A DNA stretch of 32,000 nucleotides from Candidatus Saccharimonadota bacterium (GCA_965227835.1 OZ245768.1:540001-572000), one strand, 5' to 3'. Numbered from the stretch's first letter, positions 5,010 to 32,000 are shown. Translations and numbers: made by a program. Notes: generated by a model from the letters alone, not told the origin.

Positions 5010-5435
5010 TTAACAGTTGCTTTTTGTACTACCGATTAATGTAATATAAAAATTATTAATCTTCGAAGCTTCTTCTCGTATTGGAGGCGAATTAAGTTTT
5101 TCAATATAATTCTCTTCTTGATCTTCTTGTATTAGAGCTAAAAATGAAAAATCTAAAATTTTTCATTTTAATAACTCTTTTTTCTCGTTTGAATTATGTA
5201 TATTTGAAACAATTCATGAATCATTAAATGGTGAAATACAACATTCATGAGTGATATCTTCACAGTCTCATTTCATAGTTTCACAACAATCATTTGATGA
5301 CATAGCCATCTTTTCTTGCATCATATTATGATGACTCATTTCTACATCATTCACAGCAAAAGAAGCCATTGCAGTAGTCATACATGCAATAGTCGTTGTT
5401 GCGAAGATTATTAATATAGAAATAAGTTTTTTCAT
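5010..5435 (-). CDS. Small secreted Met/His/Cys-rich protein (141 aa), candidate metal-binding partner of the efflux operon
   Basis: ATG at 5435 and TAA at 5010-5012, 426 nt. Signal-like 'MKKLISILIIFATTTIACMTTAMA' is followed by 'VEMSHHNMMQEKMAMSSNDCCETMKGDCEDITHECC'. No family was recognised; the function is inferred from composition and neighbourhood. Confidence 0.6.
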
Positions 5436-5502: not shown

Positions 5503-7530
5503 CTAATCTATTTTTAATTTATCAAAAAAGATCTTATTTCTCATTTTTGAATCATCTACTATTTTATCCCAATCAATAACTTCTATATATAAATTATTGT
5601 TTCAATACCAATCAAAGTAACCTTGTCAATCAGGCATTACTTTAAAGTTCTTTTCTCTTTGTAACCAACTCTTTACTTTTTCAGTTAATGTACAGACTAT
5701 ATATCAATAAAAAGGCGTATTTTCAGCTACTTGGATATTTTTTCATTTAGGTGTTTTATACTTTCAATCCACAATACTGTTAACATATCTAATTATTTGT
5801 TGAACAGGATCTTCCTTAGATGAAGGATTAACAAAATCATCTCTTCATGGTTTCTTAAATTCAAAAATTGTAATCGGATTTGAACTATTATTTTCTCATC
5901 TAAAAGCAATTTTTTTATCAAAAATTATTACATCTCATCTTTCGGTGTTTCATCAATTTAAAGGAATATCTGATGATATATAATCTGCGAAAGCTAATTT
6001 TTCATCAAGAACCCACATATTATGATCATTATAATCTACTGATTCGGAATCATTTTTAGTAGGAAATATAATTGTATGTAAGCTATCTTCAGATTTGTAT
6101 TTTTTAGTATCTTCATCCCATTCTAAAGACTTCTCTAATAAATCTAAGGTGAATTTCCTTGTAGCCACATAGTGTGCTAAGTCTGTTTTAACTAAATCAT
6201 CTAATGATGATACAAGTTCACGAACTTCAGATTCATTTGAAAAATCACTAGTTTTTACAAAAGTATTTACTTTCACTTTTGCTTCTTTTTCTTTTTTATA
6301 TTTTAATTCATGAAACTTTGCATCTAAATTATCTTCAGAAATTGTTGAATCTATACTATTAAGATCAAAATTTTTATATAGTGCACTATACCAAGGAGCT
6401 TTTTTATTAATAAAACTTTTTACTTTATTCACTTTAATAACTTGCTGTTCATCTAAAAAATCCTTATATAATTTTTTGATTTTCTCAGTAACTACATTAA
6501 AAATTTCTTTTTCTCATATAAAATCTTCGAAAACTTCTTCATCTTTTAAAAAATTAAAACTCTCCCTTTCTGTATCAACATTATCATCTAAGTAATCTCA
6601 ATACACATAACACTTTATTGAATAATTATTTTCTTTTTTGTCATTAGTTTCTTTTAATTTCTGATTAAAATCAGGTATAAATTTTCATAAGTTTTCTTCT
6701 ACAACTACCCTATTATGTCAACAAAGACTAATAGTATTATTTTCTATAGAATATTTAACTTTAAAAATTTTTAATCAAAACTCTATTTTATCTGCTTCTA
6801 TATTTCATTTAGGAATATGAAGTTTATTGTTATGTATAACACTTATATCTTCTTTATTTCATATCATTGAATTTAATTTTTCACTATCATATTCATCAAA
6901 TATAACTATTTCTGGACAATTAAAATCATCATCTACAAAGTACATTAATAAATGCTCTAGTAGTTTTCTTCATAGAGTTGGTACTTTTTTACTTTGAGAA
7001 TTTAGCTTCGTTATATATTGTTTTTTTAATCTTGTTAAATATAATTTAGTTCAAGTTTCTTCATCATTAGATACATCAATTATAGTACGATTAGACATCA
7101 TATCTTTTGCATTTATATCAAAAGAAAAACTGATCTTTTTTCTAATATCTCAATCTTGATAAACACTCTCAAAGTCTACCTTTTCAAAGAACTTTAAATA
7201 GAAAAATCTACCAAATCATTTACCTCAATGACTTTCAAGTTTATAATCACTTTTAAAAGTTCTAAATGATTTTTGATTATCAGAATTAAATCAAACCCCA
7301 TTGTCTGTAATAATAAATGATTCTATATCCTCTAAACTTTCCTCTTCTAATCATGATCATAATTTAGTTTGTTTACTTCTTATGACTTTTATAGATATTT
7401 TACCTTCTTTCTTTCAAGATTTTTCAAAAGCATGTATCCCATTTACAATTCATTCGTAAATAGGATAATAAACAGAAGTATTTTTTATATCATTAACTAC
7501 TCATTTTATATTGATTTCTCATATAGCCAT
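5503..7530 (-). CDS. GHKL (MutL/MORC/HATPase_c_3-like) ATPase fused to a C-terminal PD-(D/E)xK nuclease-like domain (675 aa)
   Basis: ATG at 7530 and TAG at 5503-5505, 2028 nt, in frame with track ORF 5953..6432. Bergerat motifs: 'YEGIVNGIHA' (E-x3-N-x3-A), 'ITDNGVGF' (7288-7305, one Gly is TGA) and 'HGGKGFGRFFYLKFF'. C-terminal 'RGDVIIFD...PITIFEFKKPGRDD' (EFK at 5848-5868) fits D...ExK. Confidence 0.75.
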
Positions 7531-7556
7531 ATGTATTTCTATTTATAAAATGTAAA

Positions 7557-8954
7557 CTATTTATTCCAATATTCTAATAAATTTTTTAATGCTTCTTTAA
7601 ATAGTTTTGGAGCATTTACTCAAAGAATTAATTTCCCATTCTCATTTAATAAAAAACTCACCTCAATTTCAACTATGGTTTCCTCTGTACTTCAATATAA
7701 AACAACTGATCTTAATATTTCATACTTTGGATAATTAGGTTTAATGTATAAATCTTCAATAGCATCAAAATCATCTAATTCTTTTATTCAATTAGCTCTA
7801 AATTCATATTTTTTTCATTCTAAATTTAGAATTTCACTATTATCAAAATCAATTAATATTAAATCAGGTATTGCTACTTTTTTAGATTTATCTCAATTTT
7901 TATATTCCTCTCTATCTATATATTTTTGCAATGGTATATGTTTTCATTCTTTTGTTAAAAAGTATGATTTTTCACAACCAGCATGATTTTCAAATAAAGA
8001 ATTACTGTTAGTAAAGTATTCAGTAACTATATGAATGAAAATAGTTCCTAGTTTTTCTCATTTTTTATCAAAATGCCAATATTGAGTTTTTGCAACAGGA
8101 ACTGATGAGTCTAATCCATCAAACTCTAAATTTAATTTACTAGCTATTTGAACAAATTTATTATTTCATTTAATATGTTTCTGTTCTAGTCAATGTTTTG
8201 TTATTACTATTTTTTTAGTCCATCAAAGTTTCCTTAATGTAGAAGCTATCAAACTTAAAGCTCAAATATTTGGATCATGAGCTAAACTATCACTCTTCCA
8301 TAATCTACCTGATACTTCTATTCTATCATCATATTTATCTATTAGTATAGGTACATTTCATTTTGGAGGTCTTCTCATTGAATTTTTCATTTCAATAACC
8401 TCATCAATGCTTGAAAATTTTTGTAAGTCATTATCAATATTTTCTTTTCATAAAACTTCTACTCAAAGTGTATACAAACATCTAGTTCAAAAAATATTTG
8501 TATCAGTTTGACTCTTTTTCTCTTCAACTTGAAGAGAATATAACATAATCTTTCTTACATTTGGATAGAAAAAATCAATATATACAAATTTAGAAGCTCT
8601 TTGAAATACTCAAGTATTCCTGCTTTCAGAATCATCAGTCTTAGTTTCTTCAATTGCATATAGTGGTTCATCATTCTCATTTGGTTCATCTTCTTGATAG
8701 AATAATAAGAAATCAACAAAACTAGATTTTCAACTTACTGTTTTAATAAAAATTTCTCAAATTTGTTCTGATGTAAATCAAATTACTTTGTAAGTAAAAG
8801 CAAAATTACCCTCCTTATTTAATACAGGAAGAATTCTAATGGTATCAATAAAACAAGAAATTTCATTATCAGTAACAAACTTATACAATATATTATGTAT
8901 AACTTCTCTTTTAGGTCTTTCCTCAGTTAATATCCATAGATTTTTCTTATCCAT
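7557..8954 (-). CDS. Restriction-endonuclease-like protein with two PD-(D/E)xK-like motifs (465 aa)
   Basis: ATG at 8954 and TAG at 7557-7559, 1398 nt. N-terminal region reads 'SFVDFLLF...LYAIEETKTDDSESRNTGVFQRASKF'. C-terminal region reads 'VAIPDLILIDFDNSEILNLEGKKYEF', a FokI-cleavage-domain-like position. It sits 23 nt downstream of the methyltransferase and 26 nt upstream of the GHKL gene. Confidence 0.6.
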
Positions 8955-8977
8955 TTTTAGTTTTTTTAATATTATTA

Positions 8978-10117
8978 TTAGATATTCTTTTGAAAAATAA
9001 GAATATATTGATGAATTTGGTTTGATACATATGAGAATGGATATCAGTAAGGATATAGATTAACTCATTGATCAGCCCATATTTTAGTTCACAAGTAATT
9101 TAGGTCAGGAATTTCATTTAAATCCAAAATCATATTACAATGTAGAAGATTCAAATCTTTTCATTTTGGTTGCATATCTTTTATAAAGACTACTACATGT
9201 CACTTGTTTTTCAATAACTTCATTGAATTTTCAATACTCTCTTTAAACACTCTTCTAAAGTCTTCAGATTCCATATTTCATAAATCTTCTTTAAGAGAAG
9301 TGTAAGGAGTCGCTGATGTATCTTTTTTTAATTTTATAGCCTCTCATGTTTTTTTTCTATTCATCATATCTCAATATGGAGGATCAATAAGAATTAATGA
9401 TAACTCTTCATCTCAAATTTGATTAGCTATTTTTCATGATTTTAACAGTTTTATAGAATCTCCCTGAATAGTTTTCTGCTCCTTTAATCATAAAAAGTCA
9501 TTTGCTCTTTTGTATGCATCTATAAAATCATCAGATAAGTCTATTCAAATAGCTCTTCTATTACATAGAGAAGCTCAGAGTAAAGTTCAACCTACTCACA
9601 TAAAGTAATCTAATACTAAATCATTCTCTTTAGTAAAAAATTTGATAATCCCTTCCATTAATTGAGGTGGTTTTGGAGATGGGTGTATTTTTCTAATATG
9701 ATGAGCATATCAATCCTCTAAACCTGTTGTATACCTAGTATTTATGACTGAATTCAAGAAAAAAGTCCATTCTCATCATGATAAATCATTTAATTTATTC
9801 TTTAGGTGATACTTTCTTTTATCACTAATTTGAATAACTTGCTTTGAATTACCTATTAAATATGCATTATTTATATCCTCTTTTACCCAAGTTGGAAGTC
9901 CAGCAATTTGTTCTTCTGTTAAATAGTCTACAGCTCTCGTATGTTCTTTATTATCATCATTTTTTATAATCCTAAGCTTATTTTTACACTCTTTTAATTT
10001 CCTATTCAGTAAAATTCCAAATTCTTTTTCAAGGTCATCAATAACCTCATCTTCAAATTCAGACAAATTCTTTTTACTTAATAGTGCTTTAATCTTTTTA
10101 TAATCTATAATGTCCAT
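8978..10117 (-). CDS. SAM-dependent N4/N6 DNA methyltransferase (DPPY type) with permuted motif order and an extra roughly 110-aa N-terminal region (379 aa)
   Basis: Track ORF 9776..10117 continues through TGA TGA. Motifs read: 'LSGGEWTFF', 'HPSPKPPQLMEGIIKFF', 'VLDYFMGVGGTLLGASLCNRRAIGIDLS', then 'LILIDPPYG' (9374-9385), 'LLKNKGHVVVFI' and 'HQYILIFQK'. TAA at 8978-8980, 1140 nt. Confidence 0.8.
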
Positions 10118-10121
10118 TTCT

Positions 10122-11155
10122 TTATTGTTTTTCTATATAAAATAATAATTCCTCAAGATTATGTTTTAGATCTCAAGCTACATGTTTATATCTCCTATAT
10201 GGGATTCTATATAACTTAAATGTTCACTTTTTTGAGTATTTTTCCATTACCTTTTGTATATCACTTTCTCCCATTATTCACTCTGTACTATAACTTAGAA
10301 TGATATGTTTAAAGTTAGCATTGTTGATCAAATCATCAAATTCATTTAAAACATCTTTTTTTATACAATATTTCGATCTAACATTTTTATAAGGTCTCAT
10401 TCATGTTTTACCATAAATTTCAGGATTATCATATTTAGCTATAGTTTCAAGTAAATGATAATTAGGTAGATATTGCCTTGTATTATATGGAGGATCAATA
10501 TATAGAATATCTCAAGAAATCTGTTTAATTAAGTTATTAGCATCTTCATTATATGATATATTATCTTTAGAATTATTTAGTATTTCTATATCATTTAATT
10601 CTAAAGGTTTTAAAGCTCTATTATCCCAATGTTTCAAATATGCTCAATATGTTCAGGCTATATTAGAATAAAAAGGTATAGCATGAATGAGTGTTCCAAG
10701 TAAATAATAAAATTCATTATTTTCGATCAATTCTTTTTGTTTCCATTCATTTAAAGATTGTCTTATAAAATCTATTTTCAGAGCATTATCATTTGAAATA
10801 TACATTCTATCAGACTTTTTATTCGGAGAATAATTTTCATAAATAAAAGGAGTATCTTTAATATCGTTTAAAGATACTTTTTTTTCATTTAGATATTTAA
10901 TAGGATTAGTTCATAAATGAGCTGATATTTTTTTAAATTCAGGAATAACATTTTCCATTATTGCTACCCTCTGCATTACATGTGAAAAAAACAATAAATC
11001 ATTCGATATTATTGTATAATCCTTTTTAAAAAATTCAGCTACTGATCATGTTCAAGAAAAAATATCACAGAAAATATCAACATTATCTTTAATATTTTCA
11101 TCAATTACCATTTTTATTTTATCTAGCAATAATCTTTTTGAACCTATATATCTCA
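10122..11155 (-). pseudogene. D12-class / COG3392-like N6-adenine DNA methyltransferase (M.FokI-domain-like), with the reading frame broken near 11100-11104
   Basis: 'MRYIGSKRLLLDKIKMVI' (from ATG 11155) is in one frame. The rest is in the adjacent frame: 'ENIKDNVDIFCDIFSGTGSVAEFF...NIAGTYGAYLKHWDNRAL...ILYIDPPYNTRQYLPNYHLLE (DPPY 10485-10496)...YGKTGMRPY...ILSYSTEG...YRIPYRRYK', ending at TAA 10122-10124. The body frame has a TAA at 11118-11120 upstream. The N-terminal frame hits TAG at 11039-11041. The pattern is consistent with a 1-nt deletion in 'attg-tgaaaat'. Confidence 0.7.
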
Positions 11156-11368
11156 TTAAAATTCAGTTGTATTAATATTTAAAACTTTCTTAATTTTTAT
11201 TAATTTTAAATAAGTAATATTAGTTTCTCATCTTTCTACCATACTAATATAACTCCTATCAATTCATGTAGCTTCAGCTAGATCAAGCTGACTCATTCAA
11301 AGTTCTTTTCTTGTTTTTTGTAACTCTTTTCATAAACTCACTAATATTTCTTTATCTTTATTTTTCAT
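11039..11368 (-). CDS. XRE-family HTH (RM controller/C-protein-like) ORF that, as written, runs in frame into the first 18 codons of the adenine methyltransferase
   Basis: ATG at 11368. Sequence 'LGKELQKTRKELGMSQLDLAEATGIDRSYISMVERGETNITYL' has four TGA at canonical Gly positions. I checked codon by codon: 'GAA TTT TTA ATG' (11153-11164) gives no stop between the HTH and 'MRYIGSK'. The frame ends at TAG 11039-11041. Confidence 0.7.
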
Positions 11369-11372
11369 AATA

Positions 11373-11413
11373 AAAATTCTGAATATAATTTAGTAGAATA
11401 TATTCAGAATTTT
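11373..11413 (-). terminator. 15-bp perfect inverted repeat with an 11-nt loop, ending 4 nt upstream of the HTH ATG. It is a terminator of the lysis module and/or an operator.
   Basis: Plus strand reads aaaattctgaatata (11373-11387) and tatattcagaatttt (11399-11413). On the minus strand the stem is followed by T/A-rich 'tatt' and then ATG. Confidence 0.5.
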
Positions 11414-13846: not shown

Positions 13847-16063
13847 TTATCTGATTATTACATTAAAAGTACCAGCGGTTCAAGCTGTTCAATTTGTTCA
13901 AGCACTTCAAGGCTGTGGACTATATGATCCTGAAACAGTTCATCAAGCACCTCATGATCATCAAGCACCTCAACTACTTAATAAGTTATAGTTCGCACTA
14001 TCTAATCCACAGATAATAGCTCAACCTCCACCTCATCATCATCCTCATCAACCTCATCATCCTCAACCTCAACCTGCACCAGAATTTCATCATTTTCATC
14101 AACTTCAACCACTTGCTCATCTAATATCAATAGTTCAACTTCCTTTTATTTCTCAGGCTTTGATTATGATATTTCATCAGTTATTACCTAATTCTCATCA
14201 TGCTCATCAACCTCAACCTGCACCATTACTACATCAACCACTTCATCAAGCTGAAGTTCAACCTGAATTTTGAGTATATGTTCAGTTCCAATTAGCATTT
14301 CATCATGGATTTCAATAAGCATCTCATCAAGAATTACTACATGAACCATATCATCATAAACCTCATGGAAATCAACCAGCACCACCTGAACCTCAGCTTT
14401 GTGAATCAGCAGCACCTCAACCTCATCCTCAACCATACCCTCAAGGATCTCATGCTCATCAAGAAGCTCAAGCTAAGTATCAGTTTATACTATGACTACC
14501 TCAATTTCATCAAGCACCACCTGATCATCAATTTCATGGTGTTAAAGTAGATCAATTGAATAAAACAATATTTCAATTATTTCAGAGTCATACTACATTT
14601 ATAGTTCATTCAATATTACAAATCCTACTACAATTTAGCTCTAAAACTCAATCACTACCTGTTACTTGTAAGGTAGCTCAAGAAGCCACAGTAATACTTG
14701 AATAGTTATATATCCCAAATGCTAAATTATATGTTCATGATAAAACTTCTAGATCTCAATCTCATCAATTTCAATAAAAAAGATCTATTCATAAAGCACT
14801 GGAATCAAATGAGATTTCAGTTTCACTTATAGCTCTGAAATCATTTCAAGTTGTTAGGTTTCAGGTAGAAATATCATAGGTATAGTAGTTTCAAGTTACT
14901 AATCCTGTTTGGTGTTTATCATATCAGGTATTAACTTTCTTAAATTCTCATGCATTTCAATCAGCCTGAAGTATTCAAATAAAATTAGTTCATCAAGGAA
15001 TAATAAGTTTATATCATGGTATTTTTAAATACATATCTCAGCTTGCTCATTGCCAAGATATTCAATCATAAAGTAATGCTTGTCATATAAAATCTCAATT
15101 TGATATAGTTCTTCATATTTCATATCTATTAACATCTGAATAAGTTCATGTTCTTTTTACTACTATGTGATATAAAACTTCATTATCTAAATTACAAGCA
15201 GTAGAAAATGTAAAAGCTTTCTCAGTTAATGTTCAATTAAGTTCGGTATAATTGATTGTATTTGATGTTCAATTTGTAACTACAGTTCAACTAGGAACTC
15301 AAGCATTATCAGTTTGTATTTCTATATAAATTCAATCATCAGGACTTCAAACTGTTTTAAACATTAAATTAATAGTATCTATAGCTCATTGTCAGTATAT
15401 TTTTTGTCATACATAAGGTCTAGAATTACTACCAAAATACATATTATCATCATGATCAAGTTGTGAATAATCAACCAAACTCATTGCTTTTCAAACAGTA
15501 GTATTTTGACCTAGCATATAATTTAAACTTGCACTATTAACTTCAGCTTGTAATCAAGTAATATTACTTCAATCAAGAGCTGGAAGTTTTCAGTTTTCAT
15601 CTGTTTTTACTAATTGATTCACTCAATTAAAAATATTTCACATCTTTGTTACTGATGGATTTTTTAGATCTATAAATACTCTTTCATCTGTAATTACTCA
15701 AGAATCTATTGAAGCTAGTTTTATAAAATTACTAGTAGGATAACTACCAGCTGTTTTTATTTCTCAAATTCAGGTTCAACTTGAATTATTACTGATTCCA
15801 TCATCTACATTTGCTTGATTTATTTCTATAAAAACTTTTTTAGTTCAAGTTGTATCAATAACTACATCAGCTGTATTTTGAAATAATACAGGGAAAGTTT
15901 CTGAATCTCTAGTCACATCAATAAATCAGTAACCTGCTGTTACTTTTCAAGATTGCACTTCTAATCATTCAACTACTCAGGAACTAGCAAGTGATTTAAA
16001 AATTTTTGCTAGGTCATAGTCTTGGTTTATATTTTCTCAGTTTAATAAAGCTACTCTTTGCAT
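13847..16063 (-). CDS. Glycine-rich tail fibre / receptor-binding-type protein (738 aa). The C-terminal third is mostly Gly, and most of those Gly codons are TGA.
   Basis: I translated every codon from 13847 to 16069. There is no TAA/TAG between TAG 16067-16069 and TAA 13847-13849, and the first ATG is at 16063. The C-terminus contains 'GGSGGAGGNGG...GGYGGGGGGAADSQSGGSGGAGG...' and an 18-residue poly-Gly (14021-14074). Track ORF 14188..14436 is an off-frame artefact. Confidence 0.8.
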
Positions 16064-16083
16064 TAACTAGATATAAAAAAATA

Positions 16084-31176: not shown

Positions 31177-31668
31177 CTATAATAATTTATTATTTTTTAA
31201 TATTTGCTGATATTTTTGCTGATCCTCTTTATCGAGTATTGGTTTATCTCAATTATGGAATTGGAGTTTATTCATGAAGTCTTTATCCCTCATCATTAAC
31301 CACCATTTTGAATCAGCTGAATCTCAGGCTTTTATGTTCGCTCATATATTCAATCTAGCTTGCAGGGATATACTATCTTTAAGTATCCCTTTTTCCTCCA
31401 AAAATTCAGGATTTTCTTGCTGATATTGGTATAACTTACTAGTCGAAATTTGGCTAAAGTAACAGGCTTGCTCGTCTGTCATACCTACTGCAAAACACAG
31501 CTTTAATTTTTGGAGTGTCAGATCTGTCATAATCTTAGGTCTTCAGGCTCATATTTGCTTTTCTTTTTCTTCTTCTTTTGGTAGATCTTTTGATATTTGT
31601 TTTACAGTATTTTCTTTTTCTTTTATACTCAAATTTCAGACTTTTTTGTGGAATTTTTTCCTAGTCAT
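31177..31668 (-). CDS. terS: Terminase small subunit-like HTH protein (163 aa if started at ATG 31668; track ORF 31342..31530 is its middle)
   Basis: The frame is open from ATG 31668 (overlapping the methyltransferase stop, 'GATGACTAG') through 'GAGRPKIMTDLTLQKLKLCFAVGMTDEQACYFSQISTSKLYQYQQENPEF' and two TGA to TAG 31177-31179, 492 nt. The alternative start is ATG 31530. Confidence 0.7.
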
Positions 31669-32000
31669 CTAAAATTTTGTTAATATCTAAATTTCTATTT
31701 AAGCATGTAATTTCTTTTTTTCACTTTGTAACTTCATAGTATCTCTTGATAATAGTTTGAACGAAAACAGGATCTAACTCCATCATATAACAAGTTCTTT
31801 GTTTTTTCTCACTTGCTATAAGAGTTGATCCACTTCATCAAAATAAATCTAGGATATTATCTCAAATTTTACTAGAGTTATTCAAAGCATATTCTATTAG
31901 CTCCACTGGTTTTTGTGTAGGATGCACATATTCATTTACATTTGCTCTCTTCATACTCCATAGAGTAGTTCTTCATTCAGCTTCAGCATCTTTAGCTCTT
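31661..32000 (-). CDS. Phage DNA N4/N6 methyltransferase (PF01555-like), C-terminal part. The N-terminus lies beyond the window end.
   Basis: Sequence 'TLWSMKRANVNEYVHPTQKPVELIEYALNNSSKIGDNILDLFGGSGSTLIASEKKQRTCYMMELDPVFVQTIIKRY'. The two Gly of 'FGG' (31835-31840) are TGA TGA. TAG at 31661-31663. Confidence 0.85.

Follow-up and report, generated by a model that had tools for sequence, protein, structure and literature searches.

The window analysed here, a stretch of 32,000 nucleotides (nt) from a Candidatus Saccharimonadota bacterium (GCA_965227835.1, OZ245768.1:540001-572000), carries at positions 5503 to 11368 a cassette whose five genes all run in one direction on the minus strand when translated with genetic code table 25: a small helix-turn-helix (HTH) gene, two DNA methyltransferase genes (M1 and M2), a restriction endonuclease gene (R) and a gene for a GHKL ATPase joined to a nuclease. 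Spacing is tight, HTH and M1 overlapping by 1 nt with subsequent gaps of 4, 23 and 26 nt, in agreement with an initial annotation of this DNA which had remarked on co-oriented genes 4-26 nt apart. Its naming of two methyltransferases, a nuclease and a GHKL-nuclease is upheld by family matches, but its first gene, an 'HTH-methyltransferase', is in fact two, and the genes number five. The HTH is a 70-residue open reading frame (ORF) of its own, in another frame, with its stop overlapping the M1 ATG; a fusion is rejected as the frames are separate and, in a corresponding locus from a second sample (L096), the HTH is likewise called as its own gene. Do these five genes constitute one system or two?

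11373..11413, minus strand: inverted repeat, flanked by the stop codon of the endolysin gene (11443) and the HTH ATG (11368)
11156..11368, minus strand: HTH, putative controller (C) protein, 70 residues, Xre-type, stand-alone ORF
10122..11156, minus strand: M1, D12-class (Dam-like) N6-adenine DNA methyltransferase, 344 residues, with FSGTGS and DPPY motifs
8978..10117, minus strand: M2, beta-class N6/N4 DNA methyltransferase, 379 residues
7557..8954, minus strand: R, predicted type IIS restriction endonuclease of the Mva1269I/BsmI/BtsCI group, 465 residues, single chain
8598..8672, minus strand: R catalytic site 1 (bottom-strand type), D95-x6-E102-x15-Q118-R119
7812..7868, minus strand: R catalytic site 2 (top-strand type), P363-D364-x14-E379-x-K381
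5503..7530, minus strand: GHKL ATPase-nuclease, 675 residues, starting 26 nt past R
6541..7530, minus strand: GHKL ATP-binding and transducer/middle domain, ~residues 1-330, boundaries approximate and mapped from the model of a homologue, P0012
5503..6120, minus strand: C-terminal PD-(D/E)xK nuclease domain, ~residues 471-675

A cassette read with TGA as glycine

Under the standard code (table 11) the interval 5503..11368 yields short ORF fragments only, bearing out the initial annotation's remark that the cassette is hidden from that code, and with table 25 five intact co-oriented genes emerge in the interval that it had marked out. Over the whole window, in which GC content is ~23-31% and every long ORF is on the minus strand, ORFs of at least 100 residues number 12 (4.7 kb) with table 11 versus 58 (43 kb) when TGA is read through. 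In the bacterium from which the window comes, TGA is glycine. The GHKL-nuclease gene has 29 TGA codons, including those for G80, G102 and G105, three glycines of the ATP-binding motifs that never vary in the family, and among 43 homologues from organisms using the standard code the most frequent residue at its TGA columns is Gly (34%), Trp not being among the common ones, while its TGG columns pair with W, F or Y. A reading of TGA as Trp (table 4) is rejected on the strength of these two column preferences.

Nevertheless, table 4 was used for the public gene calls of recoded relatives (GHKL homologues P0001-P0011; loci L001 and L093-L096). Their stored proteins have Trp at every TGA, with 4-6% Trp and <2% Gly (DNWVWF, for instance, where DNGVGF is meant), and family and domain detection is weakened in recoded lineages because of this substitution. 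Defence genes of lineages with TGA as Gly, and those of their phages, are consequently doubly obscured: invisible to standard-code pipelines and mistranslated in public protein sets. The heaviness of TGA usage can be considerable, with a tail-fibre-like gene elsewhere in the window (13847..16066, minus strand) having it at 120 of 740 codons (16%), with long Gly-rich runs.

The restriction-modification genes

To judge by sequence, HTH, M1, M2 and R together make up a full restriction-modification (R-M) system of type IIS, belonging to the BtsCI/Mva1269I/BsmI group. M1 matches MethyltransfD12 (1.1e-44) and the PADLOC MTase_II model PDLC03287 (2.3e-138) at model positions 1-339 of 646, so resembling the N-terminal half of a two-domain, 646-residue type II methyltransferase model. 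M2 matches N6_N4_Mtase (1.3e-24) and PDLC03391, another MTase_II model, over its full length of 381 residues (1.1e-154). Both adjoin R, and M1 and M2 would each methylate one strand, the second presumably modifying the strand of an asymmetric site that the first does not. From two methyltransferases and one endonuclease the initial annotation had reasoned to a type IIS system with an asymmetric site, and that logic holds.

What it had called a double-nuclease protein is R (PADLOC REase_II, 1.7e-65), and the presence of two catalytic sites is a known architecture. BsmI, Mva1269I, BsrI and BtsCI each consist of one chain in which two different catalytic sites cut one strand apiece (PMC2831314). 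Both signatures, [SK][DE]-x6-E-xn-QR and PD-xn-EXK/E, occur in R: at site 1, D95 is conserved in at least 90% of 25 sequences and E102, Q118 and R119 in all of them, while P363, D364, E379 and K381 of site 2 are all invariant in the same sequences. The spacings are those of the residues mutagenised in BtsCI, D121/E128/R145 and D388/E403/E405. As a monomer, R would therefore be expected to behave like its relatives of this group, each of its active sites cutting one strand near the recognition site. Homologues of R number more than 2,600, many of them 61-64% identical and from Patescibacteria plus one archaeon; a 62%-identical one (P0187) bears the UniRef name 'Mva1269I/BsmI-group type IIS restriction endonuclease'. 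Homologues of BtsCI of 463-472 residues which are accompanied by two separate methylases, and have the EXK form, are regarded as probable GGATG enzymes (Too et al. 2009, PMC2831314). A DpnII-like GATC system, an idea raised by the pairing of a Dam-like with an N6_N4 methylase, is rejected since R belongs with the two-site IIS enzymes and the depleted sequence is GGATG. Three R homologues of 639-640 residues (P0105, P0143 and P0173) also have a Peptidase_S24 (LexA-like) domain, PF00717, which suggests an endonuclease fused to a domain of the self-cleaving repressor type.

The constancy of the core was surveyed in 96 loci with R homologues of 41-73% identity, 80 of them metagenomic and 16 viral. 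An M1 homologue adjoins R in 81 and an M2 homologue in 71, with the adjacent order mostly kept. When R-bearing contigs (80; 766 kb) were pooled, GGATG/CATCC was the second most depleted of the 512 5-mers, with an observed/expected ratio (O/E) of 0.66 and z = -10.6, and it was depleted in 67 of the 75 contigs that could be tested individually; in 77 control loci lacking this R, which differ in taxonomy from the R-bearing contigs, it ranked 188th of 512 with an O/E of 0.98. The window itself has 12 such sites versus 23.6 +/- 5.0 expected, the 5-mer ranking 5th of 370 in depletion there. Depletion of CCAGG and GGACC is comparable or stronger, but is found in R-bearing and control sets alike. The recognition site is thus most likely GGATG/CATCC, which the depletion supports without proving, and a specificity deduced in silico becomes available for type IIS endonucleases that form a very large, uncharacterised and unusually conserved family. 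Next to GGATG, the 5-mers most under-represented in the window are CCTTC, GTCAA, GCAGC and GGTGA. Several of these are recognised by type IIS enzymes (HpyAV, BbvI and HphI), a hint that the phage or its host lineage faces several IIS systems.

As for a C protein, the gene heading the operon is small and encodes an Xre-type HTH; matches are to Pfam HTH_3 (1.8e-16) and to the PADLOC R-M 'Control_protein' models (9e-12 to 1e-8). By analogy with known C proteins it would delay expression of R on entry into a new cell. In the 96 other R-homologue loci no controller HTH gene was detected. Ahead of the gene, the inverted repeat has perfect 12-bp arms, ATTCTGAATATA and TATATTCAGAAT, at 11376..11410 with an 11-nt spacer. 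As RNA it would form a 15-bp hairpin (-14 kcal/mol, z = -3.5) with a U-rich stretch after it, and the 35-nt element is identical at 35 of 35 positions in L096 with the flanks having diverged. It also overlaps the -10 element of a promoter-like TTGATT-16-TATATT, a type of site which, in the promoter scan, was not above chance (52 found, 59.7 expected). The repeat may be the operator for the C protein (a C-box), the terminator of the lysis module, or both. Between the five genes there is no terminator-like site, the next on the cassette strand being at 4935-4908, past a small downstream gene. Terminator-like sites in the region scanned numbered 3 versus 0.6 expected. One terminator-like hairpin, of 14 pairs, lies within the GHKL gene (7435..7467, minus strand), ~63-95 nt after its start and over the E26 and N30 codons; it could be due to chance or be an attenuator.

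The GHKL ATPase-nuclease

The last protein of the cassette has a weak HATPase_c match in Pfam and none in PADLOC or NCBIfam. Family alignments were of standard-code homologues, and the structural model is of the nearest of them, P0012 (43% identity). The residues that matter are all in place: the ATPase (Bergerat) motifs E26, N30, D76-N-G-x-G80 and G102-G-K-G-F-G-R108, as well as the nuclease residues E481, H485, D533, E557-x-K559 and Q578-xxx-Y582, are invariant or nearly so across the family. For the AlphaFold2 model of P0012 (pLDDT 86.7) the best Foldseek matches are Hsp90/TRAP1, Topo VI-B, GyrB and SMCHD1, over 430-510 columns with E ~1e-10; TM-scores are modest (0.3-0.45) and the matches are to two-domain ATPase modules. 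The C-terminal domain modelled in isolation (pLDDT 71.5) resembles McrC, BstEII, NotI, FokI and Nt.BspD6I, all weakly, with a best E of 2.8e-3. A fold search of BFVD returned generic GHKL proteins only (RIIA, topoisomerase II and Hsp90), and nothing significant was found among PDB sequences with either the GHKL protein or a profile of its nuclease domain. Motifs and models together nevertheless depict a protein whose GHKL ATPase is joined to a PD-(D/E)xK nuclease by a middle domain like that of Hsp90/TopoVI; the initial annotation had likewise read it as a GHKL ATPase with a nuclease.

Its family is large and its members are full-length, with 93 word-indexed matches and 1,991 clusters (at 50% identity) below 1e-30, and widely spread: at least 591 species genomes from many phyla plus an archaeon, 58 plasmids and 58 IMG/VR viral contigs. 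To what named group does it belong? The features defining paraMORC3 are a GHKL domain, a second domain of S5 type and a RecB-like nuclease with E-D-ExK (Iyer, Abhiman & Aravind 2008, PMC2292703), and the window protein has intact GHKL motifs, a second, S5/transducer-like domain and a C-terminal E-D-ExK nuclease. The assignment rests on these defining features, not on alignment to named members. ParaMORC3 is common in Proteobacteria and Bacteroidetes, part of it in R-M neighbourhoods and part standing alone (PMC2292703), so that the earlier statement that MORC-like GHKL ATPases are known from R-M contexts was well founded. With the window family it shares the order of domains, a patchy and laterally mobile spread and the linkage of some members to R-M genes with others being alone. 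MORC proper is rejected: Morc6_S5 is absent from every one of 43 family members and matches to HATPase_c_3, present in 24, are weak (HATPase_c is found in 39).

A member of this architecture from Vibrio cholerae, VcSduA ('Shedu type I-D'), formerly called 'paraMORC3', is a single-gene, non-abortive anti-phage defence needing E27 of the ATPase and K557 of the nuclease (2025, PMC12137116), and the literature places GHKL-nucleases in Shedu type I-D. Canonical Shedu (SduA, with SduA_C/DUF4263), frequently met in prophages and within R-M loci (Gu et al. 2023), is a nuclease defence encoded by one gene, the N-terminal regulatory part of which varies, and the GHKL-nuclease would resemble it in this. 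However, canonical Shedu membership is rejected. SduA_C/DUF4263 (PF14082) was found neither in the window protein (E<=0.01), nor in 43 members (E<=1), nor in a family member from Vibrio fluvialis (E<=0.1); the PADLOC Shedu models have no match in the GHKL family; and there is no Shedu structure among the 50 best fold matches of the C-terminal domain. The gene directly upstream of the V. fluvialis homologue encodes a genuine SduA_C protein (PF14082, 1.3e-25), and hhalign of the GHKL-family nuclease with it gave a probability of 0.4%. NCBI annotates GHKL-nuclease and SduA as different families, even when the two are adjacent. Filing GHKL-nucleases under 'Shedu' therefore rests on architecture and not on demonstrable homology.

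Two modules as probable prophage cargo

If R-M core and GHKL-nuclease were parts of one machine they might be expected to travel together. A GHKL-nuclease is absent from all 96 R-homologue loci, although in 59 of them the sequence extends 1.5 kb or more beyond the downstream end of R. From the other side, 74 genome loci of GHKL homologues were sampled, taking to left and right the nearest two neighbours with 150 residues or more: the 272 proteins so collected form 232 clusters, and no partner is common to the loci. Survey of GHKL neighbourhoods, as the initial annotation had recommended, thus reveals no fixed partner, though R-M genes are among the near neighbours in ~1/5 to 1/4 of the 74 loci. 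Recurrent partners are a superfamily 2 (SF2) helicase in 11 loci, 5 of which also have a T5orf172 nuclease and 3 an MmeI-type enzyme; M/S genes of type I systems in ~5-6; type III mod-res in 4; and ArdC in 3. Further contexts are 1.1 kb from an HpaII-type pair, overlapping a HEPN gene, among transposases, in mixed islands and beside an integrase.

Some of these neighbourhoods are worth recording for themselves. A three-gene arrangement recurs in L019, L021, L028, L045, L054 and loci related to them: an SF2 helicase (~685 residues), a T5orf172/MUG113 nuclease-like protein (~400 residues) and the GHKL-nuclease, with the end of the second gene overlapping the start of the third; in L038, L042 and L059 an MmeI-type enzyme precedes the helicase. 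A relative from a recoded lineage (L093:1-12022) has a type IIG enzyme and after it, one behind the other, three distinct genes of GHKL type: one with HATPase_c_4, a true MORC (with Morc6_S5) and a paraMORC3-like gene. The V. fluvialis member, which over 641 residues shares 34% identity with the window protein, is carried by the IncC plasmid pIDH5335-1 (L251; NZ_AP028130.1, 333358-347355) in a type I operon with three inserted defence genes, the order being hsdR, an SMC/AAA_21-type ATPase, hsdM, hsdS, a canonical Shedu and the GHKL-nuclease, the last two overlapping by 4 nt. In the temperate phage vB_RanS_PJN03 (L252:2485-4509; ON245412.1) a full-length member, 28% identical to P0012, adjoins the integrase; its annotation as 'N-acetylmuramoyl-L-alanine amidase' looks mistaken. 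In the IMG/VR set (L193-L250) the 6-kb flank of the GHKL gene is cut by the contig end in 36 of the 58 viral contigs, and the gene therefore tends to lie near the edges of predicted (pro)phages, which could reflect either cargo at prophage ends or imprecise prophage boundaries.

In the window, upstream of the cassette come an M15 endolysin and an SNase-like gene and then tail, portal and terminase genes; downstream there is a small Cys/His/Met-rich secreted protein and then an HlyD plus AcrB-type efflux pair. Both flanks are thus as initially described, lysis genes on one side and a host efflux operon on the other, a position typical of cargo. The same five genes occupy the same phage position in L096, its module reading SNase, endolysin, HTH, M1, M2, R and the GHKL N-terminus (96% identity). 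Near-identical homologues of R and of the GHKL protein are both assigned to a contig of 1,489,121 bp, and so the element is probably in a bacterial chromosome. The explanation we favour, with a probability of about 0.68, is that two independent defence modules of known kinds are carried together as prophage cargo in a bacterium with TGA as Gly. At other loci each occurs without the other, which fits autonomy, and their union is a feature of this phage lineage.

Module 1 (11368..7557) would be the controller-regulated type IIS R-M system. In module 2 (7530..5503), if VcSduA is a guide, binding and hydrolysis of ATP by a GHKL dimer would gate the nuclease, which would attack invading DNA directly with no need of a partner gene. 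Both would serve to protect the lysogen or to exclude superinfecting phages. The initial annotation had seen one non-canonical system, the R-M core being extended by the GHKL-nuclease, and had not recognised the combination as a named one. Its account of the parts has stood better than that of the whole: the core belongs to the BtsCI/Mva1269I/BsmI group and the GHKL protein has the paraMORC3/VcSduA architecture, so that both modules are of known kinds and a single new integrated system is not supported.

Two observations concern the edges of this region. The small secreted protein (5010..5435, minus strand), which adjoins the HlyD/AcrB-type pair, has no family match; one possibility is that it binds metal and partners a Cus-like efflux system, and its gene probably marks the first host gene past the prophage. 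A fragment of a third methyltransferase (31661..31999, minus strand; N6_N4_Mtase, 3.7e-16) lies beside the terminase genes and runs off the end of the window; most likely this is an orphan methylase of the phage with no link to the cassette.

Could there be synergy without obligate dependence? The GHKL-nuclease would then be a second-line effector, licensed by the products of R-M action (free ends, nicks or stalled complexes) to degrade the fragments. This would explain why the gene lodges repeatedly in R-M operons of every type. Homologues lie inside type I operons, between hsdR and hsdS and between a reverse transcriptase gene and hsdR, as well as after hsdS plus Shedu, after type III res and after MmeI-type (IIG) enzymes, and here it is 26 nt after a IIS enzyme. 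Moreover 602 of 5,499 Shedu-type genes are inside R-M loci, and complementation has been suggested (Gu et al.). Yet only the ~1/5 to 1/4 of the 74 genome loci mentioned have an R-M gene nearby and many have none, VcSduA protects alone in a heterologous host (PMC12137116), and unrelated systems commonly co-locate in defence islands. We regard synergy as unlikely, and take the same tentative view of its generalisation, that the whole GHKL-nuclease family is a 'restriction amplifier' destroying, in an ATP-gated manner, fragments whose ends or nicks were made by R-M enzymes. Were that so, insertion in type I, IIG, III and IIS operons alike would be accounted for, a IIS enzyme that nicks and then cuts would feed the GHKL-nuclease, and the five genes would be a two-tier system and not a chance assembly. 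Cooperation between GHKL-nucleases and R-M systems has been raised but not answered in the Shedu literature, and the locus is a natural test case for it.

The integrated five-gene system of the initial annotation, with the GHKL-nuclease as ATP-driven effector of the R-M core, now seems very improbable. Tight spacing, co-orientation, synteny in L096 and the lack of a terminator-like site between R and the GHKL gene speak for it, but it is largely refuted by the zero of 96 R-homologue loci; in addition, R already has two complete catalytic sites and GHKL homologues have quite different partners or none, close relatives being found with type I or IIG systems. The five-gene arrangement recurs only in L096, which is the same phage and so adds no independent sign that the combination has been selected. 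Least credible of all is that the GHKL-nuclease serves the phage itself, for instance by degrading host or competitor DNA in lytic growth or by countering host systems, its position reflecting late-gene expression: it does follow the lysis module directly and shares its strand, and members do occur on the viral contigs and beside the integrase of a temperate phage, but most members are chromosomal or plasmid-borne in defence-island contexts, the one protein so built that has been characterised defends against phages (PMC12137116), and the neighbouring controller-regulated R-M system points to cargo for lysogenic conversion.

Some findings weigh against the account of two co-carried known modules. 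The 26-nt gap, the shared orientation, the absence of a terminator between R and the GHKL gene and the order of five genes in L096 would also fit a functionally coupled operon. In the recoded lineage the GHKL gene is beside or inside R-M loci in most of the contexts sampled, which may exceed what a purely random neighbour in a defence island would show. R has no significant phmmer or profile match to PDB chains, the BsmI crystal structure included, and its group membership rests on motifs and a database name because there is no sequence link to any PDB chain. Since M2 is of the beta class and not the second half of a FokI-like methylase, GGATG specificity relies on depletion plus deduction. 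Finally, the case for homology of the window protein to VcSduA is strong but circumstantial, the two being likened by architecture and residues, not by alignment.

How, then, do the two modules compare with systems already described? Module 1 is set beside the BtsCI-type systems with two methylases, exemplified by Cup_ORF1489 and Nfl_ORF1032 (PMC2831314). Its R has 465 residues where theirs have 463-472, the two catalytic sites have equal spacing, two methyltransferase genes are adjacent and GGATG is depleted in R-bearing contigs. It differs in having a controller HTH and in being phage-borne in a host with TGA as Gly; its M2, a beta-class N6/N4 enzyme, is unlike the second half of M.FokI or M.BtsCI; and while the site of BtsCI is GGATG 2/0, that of the window system is deduced from depletion. 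Module 2 is set beside VcSduA. VcSduA adjoins GrwAB in VSP-II and not a IIS R-M system, but in both cases a single polypeptide has a clamp-like domain between a GHKL ATPase and a PD-(D/E)xK nuclease, and the ATPase and nuclease residues on which VcSduA depends, E27 and K557, have as counterparts E26 and K559 in the window protein and E27 and K556 in the V. fluvialis member.

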